DNA of 64,000 nt from a phage: the NCBI GenBank assembly GCA_020279385.1, contig GCA_020279385.1_4762.1; one strand, 5' to 3'. Shown piece after piece: positions 2 to 60,674 of the stretch. Within the stretch, counting starts at the first letter, position 1; each line of letters opens with the position of its first letter. The notes beneath the pieces are model-generated. The model saw nothing but the letters and a program-made list of their open reading frames with translations. It was not told where the DNA came from and searched no databases. The translations under genes were made by a program, and so were the position numbers.

Positions 2-2065
2 AACTTTGTTGCATATCATCATGTTTCTGGTTATGACAATCAATTTTGTGCCATTAATACAAGTGATGACACTTATGATATCTATGCATACTACTCCGAA
101 TTTACTAATATGGTAATGGCTGAATATCAAGCGTCCAGCGATGTTAATTTAACTGTGCTTGACCGTCCTGAATATGTAGGAGAAAAACCTGTAGCTGATC
201 ATATCTATGATGCATATACAATACGCTCTTTTAACAGTTTCAGTAACCGTGGAACATTAAATTTTGCTGGCAACCATCAAGGACAATATGACATTGAGCA
301 TATGAACGAACAACCGACAAATGCTAAAAAGATGTTACGTCGGTTTAGAAGCTCTGCCATCGCGACAATCTGGCATGAAACCGTTGATGACCAGAATTAT
401 CGTCTTGCTACTGGCGGTACAGATTCAGGTCAACAATTATTGTTGTCTTCTGGGACCGGTTTGCATATTCGTAGATTGACCATCGATGGTGGCTTAGGTT
501 CCGGTTCTAATGCTGGTATTGATATTCGTCGAGGACCAAACGAATCAAGCCATTTTAATTTTATGGATTATCGCACTGGTCAAGATGTTCGTAATGGCTG
601 GTTTGGTTTTGGTGATTTGACGACCAAAGATTTTATTTGGTGGAACGATAACGGTCAAAACTCGATAAACTTGATCGAAAATGGTGAATTACATATTACT
701 GGCGGTAAAGGCCAGAAAATTGTAATGAATAGCGAAGTTGCATTATCTGAAAATGCTCGTTTGGCTGTTAAAGGTGGCAATTATGGATTAATTTTTAGAA
801 ATGATGGCGTTGGCTTCCATATTCTTACCACAGACCTCGGTGATTCATTTGGACCGTGGAATACTCGTAGACCATTCAGCTATAATTTTGCTGACGGTGG
901 ATTATATTTAGGTGGTACTAAAACTGCTCGTTGTTTGCATCTTGGAATTGATGGTAGCACTCGTCTTGAAGACAACCTGTTCTTTAAAGCTGGTTCTCGT
1001 CAATCTATGGACTATATGGAACTCGTCCATTGGGGGGCAAGCAATACAGGTCGAAATAACGTTTTAAGTCTTCGTGACTCAAAAGGATTTTTAGCAGAAT
1101 TTGAACGATTGGGTGATAATACCATTAAAAACTCCTTCTTTGGTAAACTTAAAGTTAATCGTGGTTCTGACGCAATCGTCATGAATGCCGAAACGGGTGA
1201 TTCGTCTATATATTTGCTGGGTACTTGTGCTGATAATAACAACTGGTATATCGGTAAAGGTGGTGCTGATAATGGATTAGCGTTCTATAGCTATGCTACT
1301 AATGCTGCTATCAATATTACAAACGCGGGTGATATCGCGCTAAGTCCAAAAGGCGTCGAAATGACTCATGTCAATAACGTTCGATTTTATGTTCATGGTG
1401 AACGTTGGACTGCTAGCCAATCTGGAGGTTGGAACGACCAATGGAGATTAGAAGCGCCGATATTTGTTGACCACGGCTATGTTGGACCAGACAGTTATTA
1501 TCCGATTCTTAAAGGAAGAAGTTTGATCACCAATCAAGGGTATACAACTGCCGTCGATTTTGGTATGCGTCGTGTTCCTCGAAATTGGGGGCAAGCAATT
1601 ATTCGTGTTGGATCTGCGGAGAACTCGCCAGCGGCTGGTCATCCTCAAGCTGTATTCGAGTTCCATCATGATGGTACTTTTTACTGTCCTTCCAATGGCA
1701 ACTTTAACGATGTTTATATTCGTTCTGATGACCGTCTTAAGATTAATAAAGAAGAGTTAGAAAACGGAGCACTTGAAAAAGTATGCCGTCTGAAAGTTTA
1801 TACTTACGATAAAGTTAAGTCTATTAAAGATCGTAGTGTGATTAAACGTGAAGCTGGTATTATTGCTCAGGATCTTGAAAAAGAATTGCCGGAAGCTGTA
1901 TCTAAGGTTGAAGTTGATGGATCTGCTGTTCTGACAATTTCTAATTCGGCAGTGAATGCTCTTTTAATTAAGGCTATTCAGGAAATGAGTGAAGAAATTA
2001 AAGAATTGAAAACTCCTTTCTTTACTAAAATTGCTCGCAAAATTAGTAAATATTTTAAATTCTAA
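2..2065 (+). CDS. 37: Long tail fiber distal subunit gp37, 5'-truncated at window edge, with C-terminal intramolecular chaperone (S74-like auto-cleaving) domain
   Basis: Frame open from window start to stop at 2065; C-terminal ~100 aa carry the intramolecular chaperone signature (SDDRLKINKEEL...IIAQDLEKELPEAV...NALLIKAIQEM); followed by gp38 and holin as in T2/T4. Confidence 0.8.
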   Translation, partial: NFVAYHHVSGYDNQFCAINTSDDTYDIYAYYSEFTNMVMAEYQASSDVNLTVLDRPEYVGEKPVADHIYDAYTIRSFNSFSNRGTLNFAGNHQGQYDIEHMNEQPTNAKKMLRRFRSSAIATIWHETVDDQNYRLATGGTDSGQQLLLSSGTGLHIRRLTIDGGLGSGSNAGIDIRRGPNESSHFNFMDYRTGQDVRNGWFGFGDLTTKDFIWWNDNGQNSINLIENGELHITGGKGQKIVMNSEVALSENARLAVKGGNYGLIFRNDGVGFHILTTDLGDSFGPWNTRRPFSYNFADGGLYLGGTKTARCLHLGIDGSTRLEDNLFFKAGSRQSMDYMELVHWGASNTGRNNVLSLRDSKGFLAEFERLGDNTIKNSFFGKLKVNRGSDAIVMNAETGDSSIYLLGTCADNNNWYIGKGGADNGLAFYSYATNAAINITNAGDIALSPKGVEMTHVNNVRFYVHGERWTASQSGGWNDQWRLEAPIFVDHGYVGPDSYYPILKGRSLITNQGYTTAVDFGMRRVPRNWGQAIIRVGSAENSPAAGHPQAVFEFHHDGTFYCPSNGNFNDVYIRSDDRLKINKEELENGALEKVCRLKVYTYDKVKSIKDRSVIKREAGIIAQDLEKELPEAVSKVEVDGSAVLTISNSAVNALLIKAIQEMSEEIKELKTPFFTKIARKISKYFKF

Positions 2066-2071
2066 CAACAA

Positions 2072-2089
2072 GGGGGCAACGCCCCCTTT
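2072..2089 (+). terminator. Short GC hairpin between gp37 and gp38 (weak terminator or stability element)
   Basis: GGGGGC-AAC-GCCCCC then TTT; only a short U-tract. Confidence 0.35.
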
Positions 2090-2101
2090 GGAGTATAAAT
2101 T

Positions 2102-2884
2102 ATGGCAGTAGTTGGTGTTCCTGGTTGGATTGGAAGTTCAGCCGCAAATGAAACAGGGCAACGATGGATGAGTCAAGCGGCTGGTCAATTAAGATTGGGT
2201 GTTCCTTGCTGGATGAGTCAATTTTCAGGTCGCTCGCGAGAAATTATTCATACACTTGGCGCAGACCATAACTTCAATGGTCAGTGGTTCCGTGATAGAT
2301 GCTTTGAGGCAGGTAGTACACCTATAGTGTTTAATATTACAGGTGATTTGGTATCATATTCTAAAGATGTTCCTTTATTCTTTATGTACGGAGATACACC
2401 GAATGAATATGTTCAGTTGAATATACATGGCGTAGCGATGTATGGTCGTGGCGGGAATGGCGGTAGCAAGGGTCCTGGATCAGCCGGGGGGCATTGTATT
2501 CAAAATGATATTGGTGGGAGACTAAGAATTAATAATGGCGGAGCTATTGCTGGTGGCGGTGGCGGTGGCGGTGGCGGGTATTATTCTCCTTTTCCACAAA
2601 TGAGATTAACCTTTGGCGGTGGCGGTGGGCGTCCGTTTGGTGCGCCGGGCGGATCTATTAATATGCAATCAGGCGCAACTGCTGGTACTCTTTATGCGCC
2701 CGGATCGGGGTCCGTGAACGGTATCTATAATGGCGGAAGCGGTGGTGAGGTAGGTGCTGCTGGAGGTAGATGTAATATTCGTGGTCAAGGTTCTGAATAT
2801 AATGGCGGTGATTCTGGATATGCTGTTATAGGGTCTTCTCCAACGTGGCAAAATCGCGGAGCTATTTACGGACCGGCTGTTTAG
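2102..2884 (+). CDS. 38: gp38 receptor-binding adhesin (T2-type) with glycine-rich motifs
   Basis: N-terminus [13 protein letters not shown]...[22 protein letters not shown] matches T2/T6 gp38 from memory; poly-Gly runs ([20 protein letters not shown]) separated by variable segments; SD GGAG upstream. Confidence 0.85.
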
Positions 2885-2949
2885 ACGCAATTATAAAAAG
2901 AATTAAGGAAAACTCCCACGGAAGGGGAAACTACTAAGGAGAAACGGCT

Positions 2950-3189
2950 ATGGTCTATAATATCGTCATTGGTGCTTTGTCTAATTTCGGAATGAAATTA
3001 TTATCAAAGTTAATTAGTGAAAAGATGCTCACTAAAATTTTCTTCTATTGCGCTCGTCGTCTTGCGGCTTATACCAATACGCCAATTGATGATCGTTTTG
3101 TGGAAGAACTTTATAAGGAGTTTAATAAAGATCAGTCAGAAGATAGCAACGAGCAAGATAAACCTAGTGATAGTCAACTACCTAAATAA
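2950..3189 (+). CDS. Small protein (79 aa), hydrophobic N-terminus and acidic C-terminus, between gp38 and holin
   Basis: Strong SD AAGGAG 7 nt upstream of ATG; late-strand orientation. Confidence 0.55.
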   Translation: MVYNIVIGALSNFGMKLLSKLISEKMLTKIFFYCARRLAAYTNTPIDDRFVEELYKEFNKDQSEDSNEQDKPSDSQLPK

Positions 3190-3222
3190 GAGTACACTGT
3201 CATAGTTATCTTAGGGCATTAT

Positions 3223-3879
3223 ATGCAAGTTTCTGAAAAAGGGAAAGACTTTGCTATCTCAAATGTCCTGCGCGCTATTTTCACAACTAAAAGCACGGAG
3301 TTGCTCGTACTTCGTGTTTTTGCTGCCGTCGTGTTGTCTATATTAGCATTTGTCGTTTATAGCAAAAACGAGTTATTTGCGCTTTATAAAGAGACTCGTT
3401 ATGAGACGTATGCTCACGTTCTCCAGATAGAGAAAGACCGCAATTTTGATAATGCAGCACAGGAGCAGTTACAGATAGTTCATGTGTCGGCTGATGCCGA
3501 TTTTTCTGTTGTTTTTAGTTTTCGTCCGAAAAACCTAAACTATTTTGTTGATTTGGTGGCATATGAAGGAAAGCTACCGCATACAATCGATGAAAAAAAT
3601 TTAGGCGGATTCCCTATCAATAAAACGAGTGAAGAATATCGTAGGCATCTTTTAGGTAAATCCTATTTTACCGATAAAGATTTCCAGTATATTCCATCAA
3701 GAGAAAAGAAATTAGAGAGTATCGATATAGGGTTTATGTATTCTTGCCCTATATTCAATCTCGATAATGTCTATTCTGGTAGTATCGCCATTGCATGGAA
3801 GAATAAACCGGATATTGACATTGAGAATTTAGATACTCTTTGCAATCAATCTGCCAGAATCCTCGGAAGGATTAGATAA
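3223..3879 (+). CDS. t: Holin t
   Basis: 218 aa, N-terminal TM segment; conserved T4 holin blocks (LEQLQIVHVS, FRPKNLNYFVD, AYEGKLP, MYSCPIFNLDN, ARILGR). Confidence 0.9.
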   Translation: MQVSEKGKDFAISNVLRAIFTTKSTELLVLRVFAAVVLSILAFVVYSKNELFALYKETRYETYAHVLQIEKDRNFDNAAQEQLQIVHVSADADFSVVFSFRPKNLNYFVDLVAYEGKLPHTIDEKNLGGFPINKTSEEYRRHLLGKSYFTDKDFQYIPSREKKLESIDIGFMYSCPIFNLDNVYSGSIAIAWKNKPDIDIENLDTLCNQSARILGRIR

Positions 3880-3917: not shown

Positions 3918-4164
3918 ATTGACGCATAGACGCGCCTGAATCGCATTTTGACGCTGTGTGATGAAAACAGGTAGCGTACCAGTCATCGGCTTGTTTGTCT
4001 TCGTCAGAAAACGCGTAATTTCGTTGTACGCCGTTTTCTACTTTGACCAGTGCAATAGCTGTTTCTGGAAGATCAATCAATCGGACAAAATCGCCATCTT
4101 CCCATTCTACACGAGCAATATCATAGCCCATCTCAAAGTATACAATCGCTTGTTCTAATTTCAT
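3916..4164 (-). CDS. Hypothetical protein (82 aa)
   Basis: ORF on early strand; ATGA overlap with upstream gene. Confidence 0.55.
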   Translation of the reverse strand: MKLEQAIVYFEMGYDIARVEWEDGDFVRLIDLPETAIALVKVENGVQRNYAFSDEDKQADDWYATCFHHTASKCDSGASMRQ

Positions 4165-21414: not shown

Positions 21415-21418
21415 AATA

Positions 21419-21448
21419 AAAAAAGCCTCCAATCTTTCGACGGGAGGC
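21419..21448 (-). promoter_or_regulatory. Hairpin plus U-tract in the modA leader that sequesters the SD (terminator/attenuator-like)
   Basis: - strand RNA GCCUCC-loop-GGAGGC then UUUUUUUAUU then AUG; the 3' arm is the SD. Confidence 0.45.
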
Positions 21449-21496
21449 ATAATAAAACCATTATAGAGTAGTGTCAATCACAAAGTGTATGTGATC

Positions 21497-21504
21497 TATA
21501 AATA
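21497..21504 (+). promoter_or_regulatory. T4-type late promoter TATAAATA upstream of HNH endonuclease gene
   Basis: Exact TATAAATA about 30 nt upstream of ATG at 21534, then SD AGGAG. Confidence 0.6.
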
Positions 21505-21533
21505 AGTTTGCTAGAACTAAAGGAGACCACAAA

Positions 21534-22463
21534 ATGAACTATAAACGTATTTATGATAACCTGATTGAACGTGCTAAGACTAGAACTATCGACGGATATA
21601 CAGAAAAGCATCACATCATACCACGTTGTATGAATGGAAGCGATGATGATAGCAATCTAGTTAGACTCACCCCAGAGGAACATTACATTGCTCACCTTCT
21701 GTTAGTTAAGATTTACCCAGATAACAGTAAATTGGTTTATGCTGCAAATATGATGTGCGTTTCTTCTGATTCACATAATGGAGAAAGACAGTCAAATAAA
21801 CGTCATGGTTGGTTGCGTAGAAAAATGGCAGAGGCACATAGTAAAAGAATCCGCGATAGAATGGAGAACGATCCTGAATATAGAGCTAAGGTTTCGGAAT
21901 GGGCTAGAAAAATGGGTAAAGCCATGAAAGGAGTTAAGCGAGGACCGGAATTTAGCAGAAAGTTGGCAGAAAGAAACAGAAATACCGTGATGAAAGAAGA
22001 AACTAAACGTAAAATCGGGGAAGCCAACAAAGGAAGGAAACGTACAGAAGAATATAAAAGAAAACATAGTGAGCGGTATAAGGGTGAAGGTAATCCGATG
22101 TATGGTAAACGAGGAAAGGAACATCCGGCATATGGTACTAAACCGTGGAACAACCAAACATCATTTGTTGAGCAGAAAGCATGGTGGCGGTTCGCTGGCA
22201 TGTTCTATGACTGGTATCAGATGGATATTGACCGTGGGAAACATAAACGCCACGGTCATAAAAGAATGCTTGATGAATTGGGTTTTGTTGGTTGGCGAGA
22301 AAAAGAGCCAGCCGCAGCAAGACGATCAATTGAAATGTTTGCTAAAGGCTGGAATCCTTATGAAGACCAAGAATGGTTAGATTATATTAATACCCGCTTT
22401 CCAAACGACGATAGTTTTCCGCGTTCTTCAACATATACAAAACAAACAAATCCTTTGCAGTAA
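21534..22463 (+). CDS. Free-standing HNH homing endonuclease with NUMOD-like repeats
   Basis: HNH motif (EKHHIIPRCMNGSDDDSNLVRLTPEEHYIAH); repeated basic NUMOD-like modules; opposite strand to neighbours; 3' end overlaps gp56 3' end. Confidence 0.85.
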   Translation: MNYKRIYDNLIERAKTRTIDGYTEKHHIIPRCMNGSDDDSNLVRLTPEEHYIAHLLLVKIYPDNSKLVYAANMMCVSSDSHNGERQSNKRHGWLRRKMAEAHSKRIRDRMENDPEYRAKVSEWARKMGKAMKGVKRGPEFSRKLAERNRNTVMKEETKRKIGEANKGRKRTEEYKRKHSERYKGEGNPMYGKRGKEHPAYGTKPWNNQTSFVEQKAWWRFAGMFYDWYQMDIDRGKHKRHGHKRMLDELGFVGWREKEPAAARRSIEMFAKGWNPYEDQEWLDYINTRFPNDDSFPRSSTYTKQTNPLQ

Positions 22464-22911
22464 GACCTAATGCTAGGAATTTACACATAATAAAATGGAG
22501 TTGGTCCACCGCCTCTAGGTATGTTTCGAGACGATCCGCCTCTGGCAAATCACTAAAGAGGCGGTTTCGTGCTTCCATGTGATTTGCTTTCCAGTGTTTC
22601 CATACCGCGCTCGCGTCCTTCCCGTTAGACATTCCACCTAATGCAGTATACAATTCTCGTGTTTCGTCGTCAAGAGCATTATCATTCGCTCGAATAAAAT
22701 CTAAAATTTCTCCACACGTTTTCAATTCGTCAATTTTTGCTACCCACGGACGGTCCTTAGACACCTGATCCTGTAACGCTTTTTGCATATTCATCATGTG
22801 TTGGAACGGGTTATCACCGTTGGCGATGATTTCTTTATATTTTTCTTCTGCAAAATTCAGAGTTTCCGCATTTACTAAGTGTGCACAAGAATTAAATTCT
22901 GACATATTCAC
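22387..22911 (-). CDS. 56: dCTP pyrophosphatase gp56-like
   Basis: 174 aa, size and position (next to primase 61) match T4 gp56; assignment by synteny. Confidence 0.6.
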   Translation of the reverse strand: MNMSEFNSCAHLVNAETLNFAEEKYKEIIANGDNPFQHMMNMQKALQDQVSKDRPWVAKIDELKTCGEILDFIRANDNALDDETRELYTALGGMSNGKDASAVWKHWKANHMEARNRLFSDLPEADRLETYLEAVDQLHFIMCKFLALGLTAKDLFVLYMLKNAENYRRLESGY

Positions 22912-23957: not shown

Positions 23958-24161
23958 TTATAGCTCAAATTTCATGAAAGTTCCTACACTTTCATTTTCA
24001 TTCTCTCCGTTTTCATCTAAGCCAAATTTGTAGACACTGCCATCTGGCGATGTGTAAGAGAATACACGAAAACGGCCTACCGAATCAAGTTCTGTAAATT
24101 CATATTCTTTTCCGGCTTCAAAAAGTGCATATGTGCTTTTAAGACATTTCATCGTAATCAT
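23958..24161 (-). CDS. Hypothetical protein (67 aa)
   Basis: ATGA coupling to upstream small ORF. Confidence 0.55.
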   Translation of the reverse strand: MITMKCLKSTYALFEAGKEYEFTELDSVGRFRVFSYTSPDGSVYKFGLDENGENENESVGTFMKFEL

Positions 24162-24316
24162 TTAAGCGCCACCGACAACAGAATGAGAACTACACCAACA
24201 TACATTGTGATCTCGGATAACTTTTCTGTTTTTGTTTTGTGTCCAGATAATCCGAAAACAACAACACCGACAATAGCGGACAGCAAGCCAACGATAAACA
24301 TGATGATACTAAGCAC
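24158..24316 (-). CDS. Possible small membrane protein (~50 aa)
   Basis: rc reads (V)LSIIMFIVGLLSAIVGVVVFGLSGHK...; GTG or ATG start; not in ORF track. Confidence 0.3.
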   Translation of the reverse strand: MLSIIMFIVGLLSAIVGVVVFGLSGHKTKTEKLSEITMYVGVVLILLSVALK

Positions 24317-24485
24317 CGTCTTTCTCCTTTTTGCGTTTTTCTTTACCCGCTACACTAGGTCCACGATTGGTAATAGATCCGCTCGTTTCACCTGCTGCGA
24401 TCTTCTCAGGATTGCCGCCACCATCGCCAGCGGTCATATCTTCTTTGAGTTTATTTTCTTCAACAAACTGTTTAAATCCAATCAT
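24309..24485 (-). CDS. Possible small protein (58 aa), Gly-rich
   Basis: rc reads MIGFKQFVEENKLKEDMTAGDGGGNPEKIAAGETSGSITNRGPSVAGKEKRKKEKDGA; ATGA overlap upstream. Confidence 0.35.
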   Translation of the reverse strand: MIGFKQFVEENKLKEDMTAGDGGGNPEKIAAGETSGSITNRGPSVAGKEKRKKEKDGA

Positions 24486-59917: not shown

Positions 59918-60316
59918 TTAAGACAGTCGAGTGAGTTTATAAATTGTTTTAAAACATAGAGCTTTGATATCGTCTAAAACGCTCTGTAACGAGCTATCAA
60001 CATCATTATAAATCTCACTAGCCATTTGCGTTAACTCTTGCAAATAGGCAATTTCGCTAATCTCCTTGCGGACGACCAACGTTGGCTGATAACGACCAGT
60101 GATCCCAATATTGGTTTCAGTGAAATCATCAACCAATTCTTGCATTTCAAGATAGAACTCTTCTAGAGCCTTATGTTTTGCATAAGATCCAGGACCAGTT
60201 ACCCCAAAATGCGCAGAATGCATATAAGTAACACTCATCAGACATTCACCGATAAAGCGGTCAACTTTATTAGCTTTCCCCTCTTCGGACGTCTTTCGAA
60301 AATCACTGAATTTCAT
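59918..60316 (-). CDS. Hypothetical protein (132 aa)
   Basis: ORF on early strand. Confidence 0.55.
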   Translation of the reverse strand: MKFSDFRKTSEEGKANKVDRFIGECLMSVTYMHSAHFGVTGPGSYAKHKALEEFYLEMQELVDDFTETNIGITGRYQPTLVVRKEISEIAYLQELTQMASEIYNDVDSSLQSVLDDIKALCFKTIYKLTRLS

Positions 60317-60606
60317 GTTCTCGATTCTCCATATTTATGCAACATAACAAACTGTTGTGCGGCATATTCCCCCATAATAAAACACTGCTTAGAATCCATA
60401 CATTTACTACGAGCATACATCTTCATAATATGGGCATGAAATTTCTGGCTGGTTTCAATGGAAGGAGATATTTTGTTTACATATACTATCATTGCACCGT
60501 CGAAATAATCAGTAAAGTCACCAGTTGGATCATATTGATCAGCACTGACACTTCCGACCGCAGTCAAGCATATTGCCGCTGTTAGAGTTTTACGAATAAA
60601 TGACAT
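60313..60606 (-). CDS. Small secreted protein (97 aa) with signal peptide
   Basis: N-terminal MSFIRKTLTAAICLTAVGSVSA; preceded by a late-type promoter. Confidence 0.6.
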   Translation of the reverse strand: MSFIRKTLTAAICLTAVGSVSADQYDPTGDFTDYFDGAMIVYVNKISPSIETSQKFHAHIMKMYARSKCMDSKQCFIMGEYAAQQFVMLHKYGESRT

Positions 60607-60639
60607 AAGTCATTCCCCCAGATTAAAAATATTCAGTTA

Positions 60640-60647
60640 TATTTATA
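60640..60647 (-). promoter_or_regulatory. T4-type late promoter TATAAATA (- strand) within a 10-bp inverted repeat
   Basis: rc TATAAATA ~34 nt upstream of ATG at 60606; flanked by CCCCAGATTA/TAATCTGGGG inverted repeat. Confidence 0.5.
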
Positions 60648-60674
60648 ATCTGGGGCTTTATTTATGATTAACTC

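Follow-up and report, generated by a model that had tools for sequence, protein, structure and literature searches.

We analyzed a 64,000-nucleotide (nt) stretch of phage DNA, hereafter the window (NCBI GenBank assembly GCA_020279385.1, contig GCA_020279385.1_4762.1), which comes from a Krischvirus, an RB49-like T4-type phage. Between modB and gene 56, and outside any intron or intein, the window carries an ATG-start open reading frame (ORF) of 309 amino acids (aa; 21534..22463, + strand) that almost certainly encodes a free-standing HNH homing endonuclease of the T4 Mob family. The gene is part of a heterologous cassette (21478..22882) made up of a T4-type late promoter box, the HNH gene and gene 56 minus its first 23 nt. 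This 1405-nt block takes the place of a 503-nt segment of RB49 that includes nearly the whole of gene 56. From these comparisons we infer a module in which an active nuclease, transcribed late and followed by its own terminator, would cut gene 56 of endonuclease-free relatives, and we consider this full mechanism, intronless homing, to be fairly probable. The gene itself is already annotated in two public genomes (JSE and G37-3), its family is well studied and the mode of spread is a textbook one. What appears to be undescribed in the literature that we searched is the linkage to a whole heterologous gene 56, the use of the same site in two further genera and the convergence with the T4 endonuclease SegF on gene 56.

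A Mob-type HNH protein

We compared the predicted protein with profile and sequence collections. PHROG 655, annotated as “homing endonuclease,” matched residues 1–300 (E = 4.5e-78), and a large protein collection contained 2582 relatives (E ≤ 1e-10). BLASTP against T4 returned MobB (E = 6e-32; 44% identity over 150 aa), MobE (E = 2e-28; 48% over 107 aa) and MobC (E = 1e-17; 57% over 65 aa), and the mobA remnant of T4 was also matched by tblastn (E = 9e-11). This similarity is confined to the N-terminal domain, ending at about residues 60–143, and thus fits the definition of the Mob family, whose members share an HNH domain at the N terminus and differ in their C-terminal regions (PMC2790892). 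Like the T4 Mob enzymes, the protein combines the homologous HNH domain with a C-terminal region of its own; it differs from them in that its C-terminal two thirds consist of a NUMOD3 linker and the GWNPxED..W domain of PHROG 655, and in its insertion site. A preliminary description of the locus had called the gene a free-standing homing endonuclease, and the Mob homology together with the PHROG 655 match supports that identity. Among public genomes, the closest proteins are G37_3_00018 of G37-3 (“putative HNH endonuclease,” 97% identical) and EpJSE_00015 of JSE (“homing endonuclease,” 92% identical).

The HNH catalytic motif (GYTEKHHIIPRCMNGSDDDSNLVRLTPEEHYIAH) occupies residues 21–54 (21594..21695, + strand), as located by alignment, profile matches and an AlphaFold2 (AF2) model. 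In an alignment of 36 full-length family members, residues E24, H26, H27, C32, G35, N41, E49, H50 and H54 are invariant. The motif is thus intact, with the catalytic and metal-binding His and the structural Asn expected in the HNH (beta-beta-alpha-metal) nuclease superfamily. A profile made from this alignment paired residues 21–50 with the HNH motifs of EcoKMcrA (6ghc, E = 0.0028), a group II intron maturase and Cas8-HNH. The AF2 model has a predicted local distance difference test (pLDDT) score of 80.6 overall and of ~96 in the N-terminal 70 residues; it shows a strand-strand-helix arrangement at the HNH motif, followed by a long basic helical linker and a helical C-terminal domain. The NUMOD3 motif at residues 167–192 (22032..22109, + strand) scores above the Pfam gathering threshold (PF07460, E = 9.5e-7, 29.1 bits versus a cut-off of 20.4). 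In the family alignment, the basic, helical NUMOD3 linker is longer than that of the 219-aa homologs from Slopekvirus by ~70 residues.

Other searches contributed little. The Protein Data Bank sequence search with the single protein gave chance matches only, NCBIfam had no match for the protein, and fold searches with the whole AF2 model were uninformative. Pfam found no GIY-YIG domain in the protein, and BLASTP against SegF (E = 0.8) aligned the basic linker only; the gene is an analog of segF that lies outside the Seg family. Compared with JSE, the HNH gene of the window has 41 synonymous and 22 non-synonymous codon changes, which indicates moderate purifying selection, and the ORF is intact in all carriers.

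A replacement cassette with a foreign gene 56 allele

We delimited the cassette by blastn and direct alignment against RB49. Identity to RB49 is 99% up to position 21477 and 100% from position 22883; between the two it drops sharply to ~56% or to no alignment at all. The right junction (22882/22883) falls within gene 56, after its first 23 nt, and at the left junction (21477/21478) identity ends exactly at the upstream edge of the modB promoter −35 box. The preliminary description had taken the locus for the insertion of a mobile endonuclease gene. The mobile endonuclease gene holds; the plain insertion does not, given that RB49 sequence has been replaced.

Gene 56 of the window (22387..22905, − strand) encodes a 172-aa dCTPase/dUTPase-type nucleoside triphosphate pyrophosphohydrolase, identified by comparison with the gene 56 product (gp56) of RB49. 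The two alleles have the same length and align without gaps, with 56% identity at the aa level and ~56% at the nt level, spread evenly along the gene. In the phage collection, proteins at least 95% identical to the window allele occur only in the three HNH-carrying records and all other gp56 proteins are less than 60% identical, which amounts to a strict linkage of allele and HNH gene. Its nearest other relatives (64–66% identical) are found on uncultured T4-like contigs, which have a Mom-like gene after gene 56 and no adjacent HNH gene. Among the carriers, gene 56 has 38 synonymous and 3 non-synonymous codon changes.

Only 3 of the 59 Krischvirus records carry the HNH gene (JSE, which is represented twice, and G37-3), rather than all relatives, and the sporadic presence expected in the preliminary description is thus what we found. 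The flanks of the cassette (2.2 kilobases (kb) on the left and 1.2 kb on the right) are 98–99% identical in all pairs of the window, G37-3, JSE and RB49, and in these flanks the carriers are no closer to one another than to the HNH-less RB49. The cassette itself differs by 2.5–9% among carriers, in patches, with mostly synonymous changes in gene 56. Between JSE and the window, the HNH gene shows allelic differences that include a 3-codon deletion in JSE, and the linked gene 56 diverges patchwise. Since the cassette is more diverse than its flanks, the cassette lineage is older than the backbones and moves among them; the carriers’ cassettes also recombine with each other. We also inspected 25 IMG/VR loci with relatives of the HNH protein and found none with gene 56, modB or gene 61 nearby, so the association with gene 56 is specific to the Krischvirus and Slopekvirus members. 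Close to the endonuclease gene, the region 24100–24400, around a small membrane-protein ORF (24158..24316), is 69–89% identical to JSE and 99–100% identical to RB49 and G37-3; this patch is another local allele swap.

The DNA to the left of the cassette is an early promoter followed by a stem-loop, ahead of modB (21415..21477, − strand), recognized by promoter match and folding. The promoter is a near-consensus sigma-70 promoter (TTGACA-17-TATTAT, 11 of 12 matches), and the downstream stem-loop GCCUCC...GGAGGC with its U-run has a folding energy of −15.6 kcal/mol (z = −2.9). Elements of this type, promoter early stem-loops (PeSLs), have been described for RB49 and phi1 (PMC2839356). The 3′ arm of the stem-loop contains the modB Shine-Dalgarno sequence GGAGG, and this apparent PeSL-type promoter/attenuator could also gate the translation of modB.

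Gene 56 as the probable target

Outside Krischvirus, the nearest homologs of the HNH protein are found in Slopekvirus, with 43–44% aa identity over residues 1–288. The Slopekvirus gene (for example, KNT56_gp018 of phT4A) is convergent with gene 56 and abuts it, and its distribution is again sporadic: among Slopekvirus-type records of Klebsiella and Escherichia phages, ~22 carry the homolog and ~90 are without it. The Slopekvirus cassette also begins with TATAAATA, the late promoter box of the window, just inside its left junction, although Prick1 has CATAAATA there. The two genera are thus alike in the position and convergent orientation of the endonuclease gene relative to gene 56, in the box at the start of the cassette and in sporadic distribution. 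They differ in that the Slopekvirus protein has 219 aa and a single NUMOD3-type repeat, its gene overlaps gene 56 by 7 nt, and the exchange consists of an insertion of ~890 nt plus a recoded tract of 120 nt, versus the replacement of a whole gene in Krischvirus. The Slopekvirus cassette also has an extra small ORF between promoter and HNH gene. In phT4A, where it is not annotated, this ORF (2291–2500, + strand) comes after TATAAATA and before the HNH start codon, with an AAGGAG of its own (MISTVSTIVVHAHYTTTPVFEGDIYTFKYTFPIEQIVQLMKNRHPIGW...), and extends into the HNH gene in a different frame; the Krischvirus cassette has no equivalent.

The less divergent Slopekvirus alleles allow a closer look at gene 56. 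Comparing phT4A, a carrier, with Roth23, a non-carrier, we found a clean insertion of ~890 nt at the gene 56 stop codon and a left flank that is 99.96% identical. The 2.5 kb on the right contain 44 differences, of which 33 are concentrated in the final 120 nt of gene 56 and mostly affect third codon positions. Approximately 10 Slopekvirus-type records without the HNH gene are mosaic and carry all or part of this carrier-type tract. KM2 and Lychee, which are both HNH-less, are of carrier type at gene 56 nt 412–516 or 412–504 and of non-carrier type at nt 525–536, and Prick1, a carrier, is of non-carrier type at nt 456–484. These tracts look like the footprints that would be expected from break repair near a cut inside gene 56. 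If so, they would point to gene 56 nt ~412–455 (or 489–516), which encode E-x-I-D-Q-x-H-F-x-x-C-K-F-x-A-L-G. KM2, Lychee and the other mosaic records would be natural “immune but empty” alleles.

An active enzyme might instead have its target outside gene 56, in the gene 56–modB intergenic promoter region or in modB, with the foreign gene 56 hitch-hiking by co-conversion. In RB49, the insertion point adjoins the modB promoter and is separated by only 7 nt from the stop of gene 56; some Seg enzymes, namely SegE and SegB, cut intergenic DNA (PMC2330249); and the Krischvirus comparison singles out no part of gene 56. We nevertheless regard such a target as quite improbable, as modB and its promoter are 99–100% identical in carriers and non-carriers all the way to the junction, and an enzyme with such a site would cut its own carrier as well unless the site spanned the junction. 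Moreover, it is inside gene 56 that the recoded Slopekvirus tract lies, beside a left flank that is nearly unchanged.

T4 itself offers the precedent for a target in gene 56. There, segF directly follows gene 56 at its 3′ end, in the same orientation; the insertion site of segF is given as soc/56 and the target as gene 56 (PMC2988022 Table 1). SegF excludes T2 gene 56 in T4 × T2 crosses, as summarized in PMC2330249, and this case of intronless homing was reported by Belle, Landthaler and Shub (2002), as cited in PMC2988022 and PMC2330249. The window shares with T4 a free-standing endonuclease gene at the 3′ end of gene 56, a sporadic distribution and gene 56 alleles that differ between carriers and non-carriers, and the documented replacement of the recipient gene 56 matches the replacement seen here. 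SegF, however, is a GIY-YIG enzyme of unrelated sequence, and its gene, which has the orientation of gene 56 and an 11-nt overlap with it, reportedly lacks a promoter of its own (PMC2988022); the present gene is HNH-type, convergent and equipped with its own late-promoter box. The suggestion in the preliminary description that the cleavage target is a neighboring conserved gene therefore gains support from three sides: the heterologous gene 56 allele within flanks that are 99–100% identical, the Slopekvirus tract and the SegF precedent. As a separate observation, two T4-type phages of other genera, UPEC03 (MW250785.1) and vB_Eco_F26 (OP870145.1), have an annotated homing endonuclease directly beside the dCTPase gene, which hints that the gene 56 site is used even more widely.

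The mechanism that we favor would run as follows. Late in infection, gp55-RNA polymerase would start at TATAAATA and transcribe the endonuclease gene against the surrounding early genes. In a co-infection with an endonuclease-free Krischvirus, the enzyme would nick or cut the other DNA in or beside its RB49-type gene 56, probably in the 3′ third of the gene, by analogy with Slopekvirus. HNH enzymes often nick, whereas the GIY-YIG enzyme SegF makes double-strand breaks. T4-type recombination-dependent repair would then copy from the carrier genome. As the two gene 56 alleles, at ~56% identity, cannot pair, homology would first be found in the modB promoter to one side and, to the other, in gene 61 and the first 23 nt of gene 56, and the whole 1.4-kb block, nuclease gene and gene 56 allele together, would be copied in. 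The outcome would be a localized marker exclusion, as for T4 SegF and T2 gene 56, with the carrier’s own gene 56 allele presumably resistant to cleavage. Among the Mob enzymes, MobE makes a site-specific nick in the neighboring nrdB, and flanking polymorphisms are co-converted (PMC2790892).

Several observations weigh against homing into gene 56 by an active enzyme. The Pfam HNH model PF01844 hits the correct stretch of the protein (residues 22–44) and does so below threshold (16.5 bits versus a cut-off of 21.4, E = 0.0094), though sub-threshold scores are common for Mob-type HNH domains and the PF01844 annotation is also absent from most homologs in the large protein collection. In Krischvirus, the target site cannot be located by sequence alone because the whole of gene 56 differs. 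No donor of the gene 56 allele was found in the large protein collection, where the best relatives reach 64–66%, and the donor lineage is therefore unsampled. Cleavage and exclusion are demonstrated activities of SegF and predicted ones of the present enzyme. The population evidence in Krischvirus is thin, consisting of three sequenced carriers and the window. Finally, the left junction abuts the PeSL-type element, and the block could have arrived by ordinary recombination; for RB49 and phi1, PeSL elements are reported to shuffle modules independently of endonucleases (PMC2839356).

In one alternative, the Mob-type endonuclease is a passenger or is decaying. It would be inactive now, or would never have cut Krischvirus DNA, and the block would have been placed by ordinary or PeSL recombination with an unsampled T4-like phage and would persist through its linkage to a functional gene 56. 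The left junction falls exactly at the edge of a sigma-70 promoter/stem-loop of the kind that drives module shuffling (PMC2839356), while the right junction, 23 nt into gene 56, is not at a PeSL. Many T4 mob genes are defective or uncharacterized (PMC2988022 Table 1), with mobA surviving as a remnant; the present family has invariant catalytic residues, and all four carriers as well as an 18-member metagenomic cluster have an intact ORF. The HNH protein does change faster than gp56 (22 versus 3 non-synonymous codons), yet synonymous changes outnumber non-synonymous ones by ~2:1. Carriage by 3 of the 59 records would suit a passenger, but the greater diversity of the cassette than of the backbone argues for repeated transfer, and the Slopekvirus homolog adjoins a classic conversion tract. 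On this evidence we think a passenger unlikely.

If the homing reading is extended across genera, a broader picture can be put forward, tentatively and with somewhat more doubt than confidence. Two unrelated nuclease families may have settled repeatedly and independently at the 3′ end of gene 56, in at least three T4-type genera: the GIY-YIG family, with SegF, in Tequatrovirus, and the Mob-type HNH family in Krischvirus and Slopekvirus. The Krischvirus unit may be a self-contained opposite-strand module, comprising a late promoter, the nuclease gene and an antisense terminator within a co-traveling, cleavage-immune allele, and it may spread by all-or-none replacement of 1.4 kb as the alleles are too different to recombine. 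KM2 and Lychee would place the cut at gene 56 nt ~412–516, which encode the conserved D..HF..CKF.ALG. If true, intronless homing at gene 56 would have a second and mechanistically independent example, with the HNH and GIY-YIG families converging on one essential-gene target; a homing endonuclease would also be carrying an entire heterologous allele of an essential gene for nucleotide metabolism from phage to phage among genomes that are otherwise 98–99% identical. This would bear on gene exchange and mutual exclusion of T4-type phages in mixed infections, including therapy candidates such as JSE, and would leave current concepts unchanged. RB49 versus JSE/G37-3 and the Slopekvirus mosaic alleles are ready substrates for target-site mapping.

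Expression signals, overlap and strand context

The T4-type late promoter box TATAAATA (21497..21504, + strand) is an exact match located 30 nt upstream of the HNH start codon, and it is identical upstream of the HNH gene in JSE and G37-3; the preliminary description had also noted an exact box ahead of the gene. There are two exact copies on both strands of the 64 kb, versus 5.8 expected from shuffled sequence. With only two copies in the window, the presence of one 30 nt ahead of the HNH ORF is unlikely to be due to chance, and by analogy with the T4 consensus we infer that it works as a late promoter. A Shine-Dalgarno sequence, AGGAG, was read 8 nt before the ATG (21521..21525, + strand), and the 5′ leader (21505–21560) is unstructured (−3.8 kcal/mol, z = −0.21), leaving the ribosome-binding site free. 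We therefore rejected a hairpin that sequesters the ribosome-binding site, as found in I-TevI, mobE of Aeh1 and segB; such a hairpin is not expected at this gene, since early transcription does not enter on the + strand. We also rejected an operator in the style of I-TevI, as the best match between the HNH promoter region and RB49 gene 56 (13 of 20 positions) equals that of shuffled controls. The other copy of TATAAATA in the window (60640–60647, − strand) lies within an inverted repeat, CCCCAGATTA...TAATCTGGGG (60590–60660), whose 3′ arm reaches the G-rich ribosome-binding region of a 97-aa ORF (60313..60606, starting at 60606). This layout resembles one known from T4, where longer early transcripts have their ribosome-binding site masked by a hairpin that contains a late promoter.

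A promoter of its own on the opposite strand sets the gene apart from most T4 mob and seg genes. The gene mobE is on the same strand as its neighbors, has no promoter and is limited by an internal terminator, in contrast to the present gene with its own TATAAATA. T4 segD is also on the opposite strand, and no segD-specific promoter was found (PMC2988022). Expression from a putative late promoter on its own strand could be taken to mean that the nuclease is kept mainly because it benefits the phage, through late exclusion of competing relatives or through DNA processing, and that the homing-like footprints are a side effect. Purifying selection on the HNH gene would agree with this, as would the host-beneficial roles assigned to phage homing endonucleases, such as that of SegB with anti-defense gene amplification, as outlined in PMC13096335. 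Still, 56 of the 59 otherwise near-identical Krischvirus genomes lack the gene, which is thus not needed for growth, and the cassette consists of the HNH gene and gene 56 only, with no defense or anti-defense gene. We give a benefit of this kind very little credence.

Downstream of the HNH gene is a candidate intrinsic terminator (22536..22575, + strand), antisense within gene 56, with the stem CCGCCTCT/AGAGGCGG followed by TTTCGTGCTT. Its hairpin (22536–22564, + strand), which precedes UUUCGUGCUU, lies ~75 nt beyond the HNH stop codon and has a folding energy of −20.6 kcal/mol (z = −3.06), with 0 of 200 shuffles as stable. The JSE version folds with −16.9 kcal/mol (z = −4.06). The stem is retained in JSE and G37-3 with a variable loop, and the G37-3 record has an ARNOLD-predicted terminator at the same hairpin. 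The T-run is weak, and a simple terminator scan scored only a weaker neighboring stem. Tentatively, the hairpin may curb late transcription that would otherwise run antisense into genes 56 and 61.

The HNH gene and gene 56 converge with an overlap of 77 nt (22387..22463), which spans the last 25 codons plus stop of each gene and agrees with the overlap of about this length given in the preliminary description. In the family alignment, the HNH tail encoded here (INTRFPNDDSFPRSSTYTKQTNPLQ) lies beyond the conserved C-terminal GWNPxED..W motif, which ends at about residue 284, and most homologs end within a few residues of that motif. Among the window, G37-3 and JSE, the HNH tail has amino acid changes (K/R, N/D, P/L, L/S), whereas gp56 has none in the residues encoded opposite, which indicates that selection in the overlap acts on gene 56. 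A functional overlap, such as a conserved C-terminal extension, was rejected, as the tail is unconserved and varies with synonymous changes of gene 56. The overlap is a by-product, in which the HNH frame simply runs into gene 56 antisense until its first stop.

The DNA around the endonuclease gene matches Krischvirus genomes (RB49, JSE and phi1-like T4-type coliphages) with 94–99.5% identity. Gene order on the − strand at the locus is dda, an ORF, srd, modB, the endonuclease gene (on the + strand), 56 and 61, and the flanking modB and gene 56 are both intact ORFs. The left neighbor, named modA in the preliminary description, is annotated as modB in RB49 and JSE. To survey strand usage, we scanned the window for ORFs of at least 90 aa, excluding those inside a longer ORF on the opposite strand. 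All long ORFs from ~4161 to 64000 are on the − strand except the endonuclease ORF, and in the G37-3 annotation the HNH gene is the sole + strand coding sequence within the first 50 kb. Both the 309-aa HNH/NUMOD ORF and its standing as the lone + strand gene in a run of ~50 kb, as first described, are thus confirmed; we put the run itself at roughly 50–60 kb. Three + strand ORFs of 651, 260 and 218 aa at the start of the window (110–3879), before the − strand run begins near 4161, presumably mark the end of a late-gene block.

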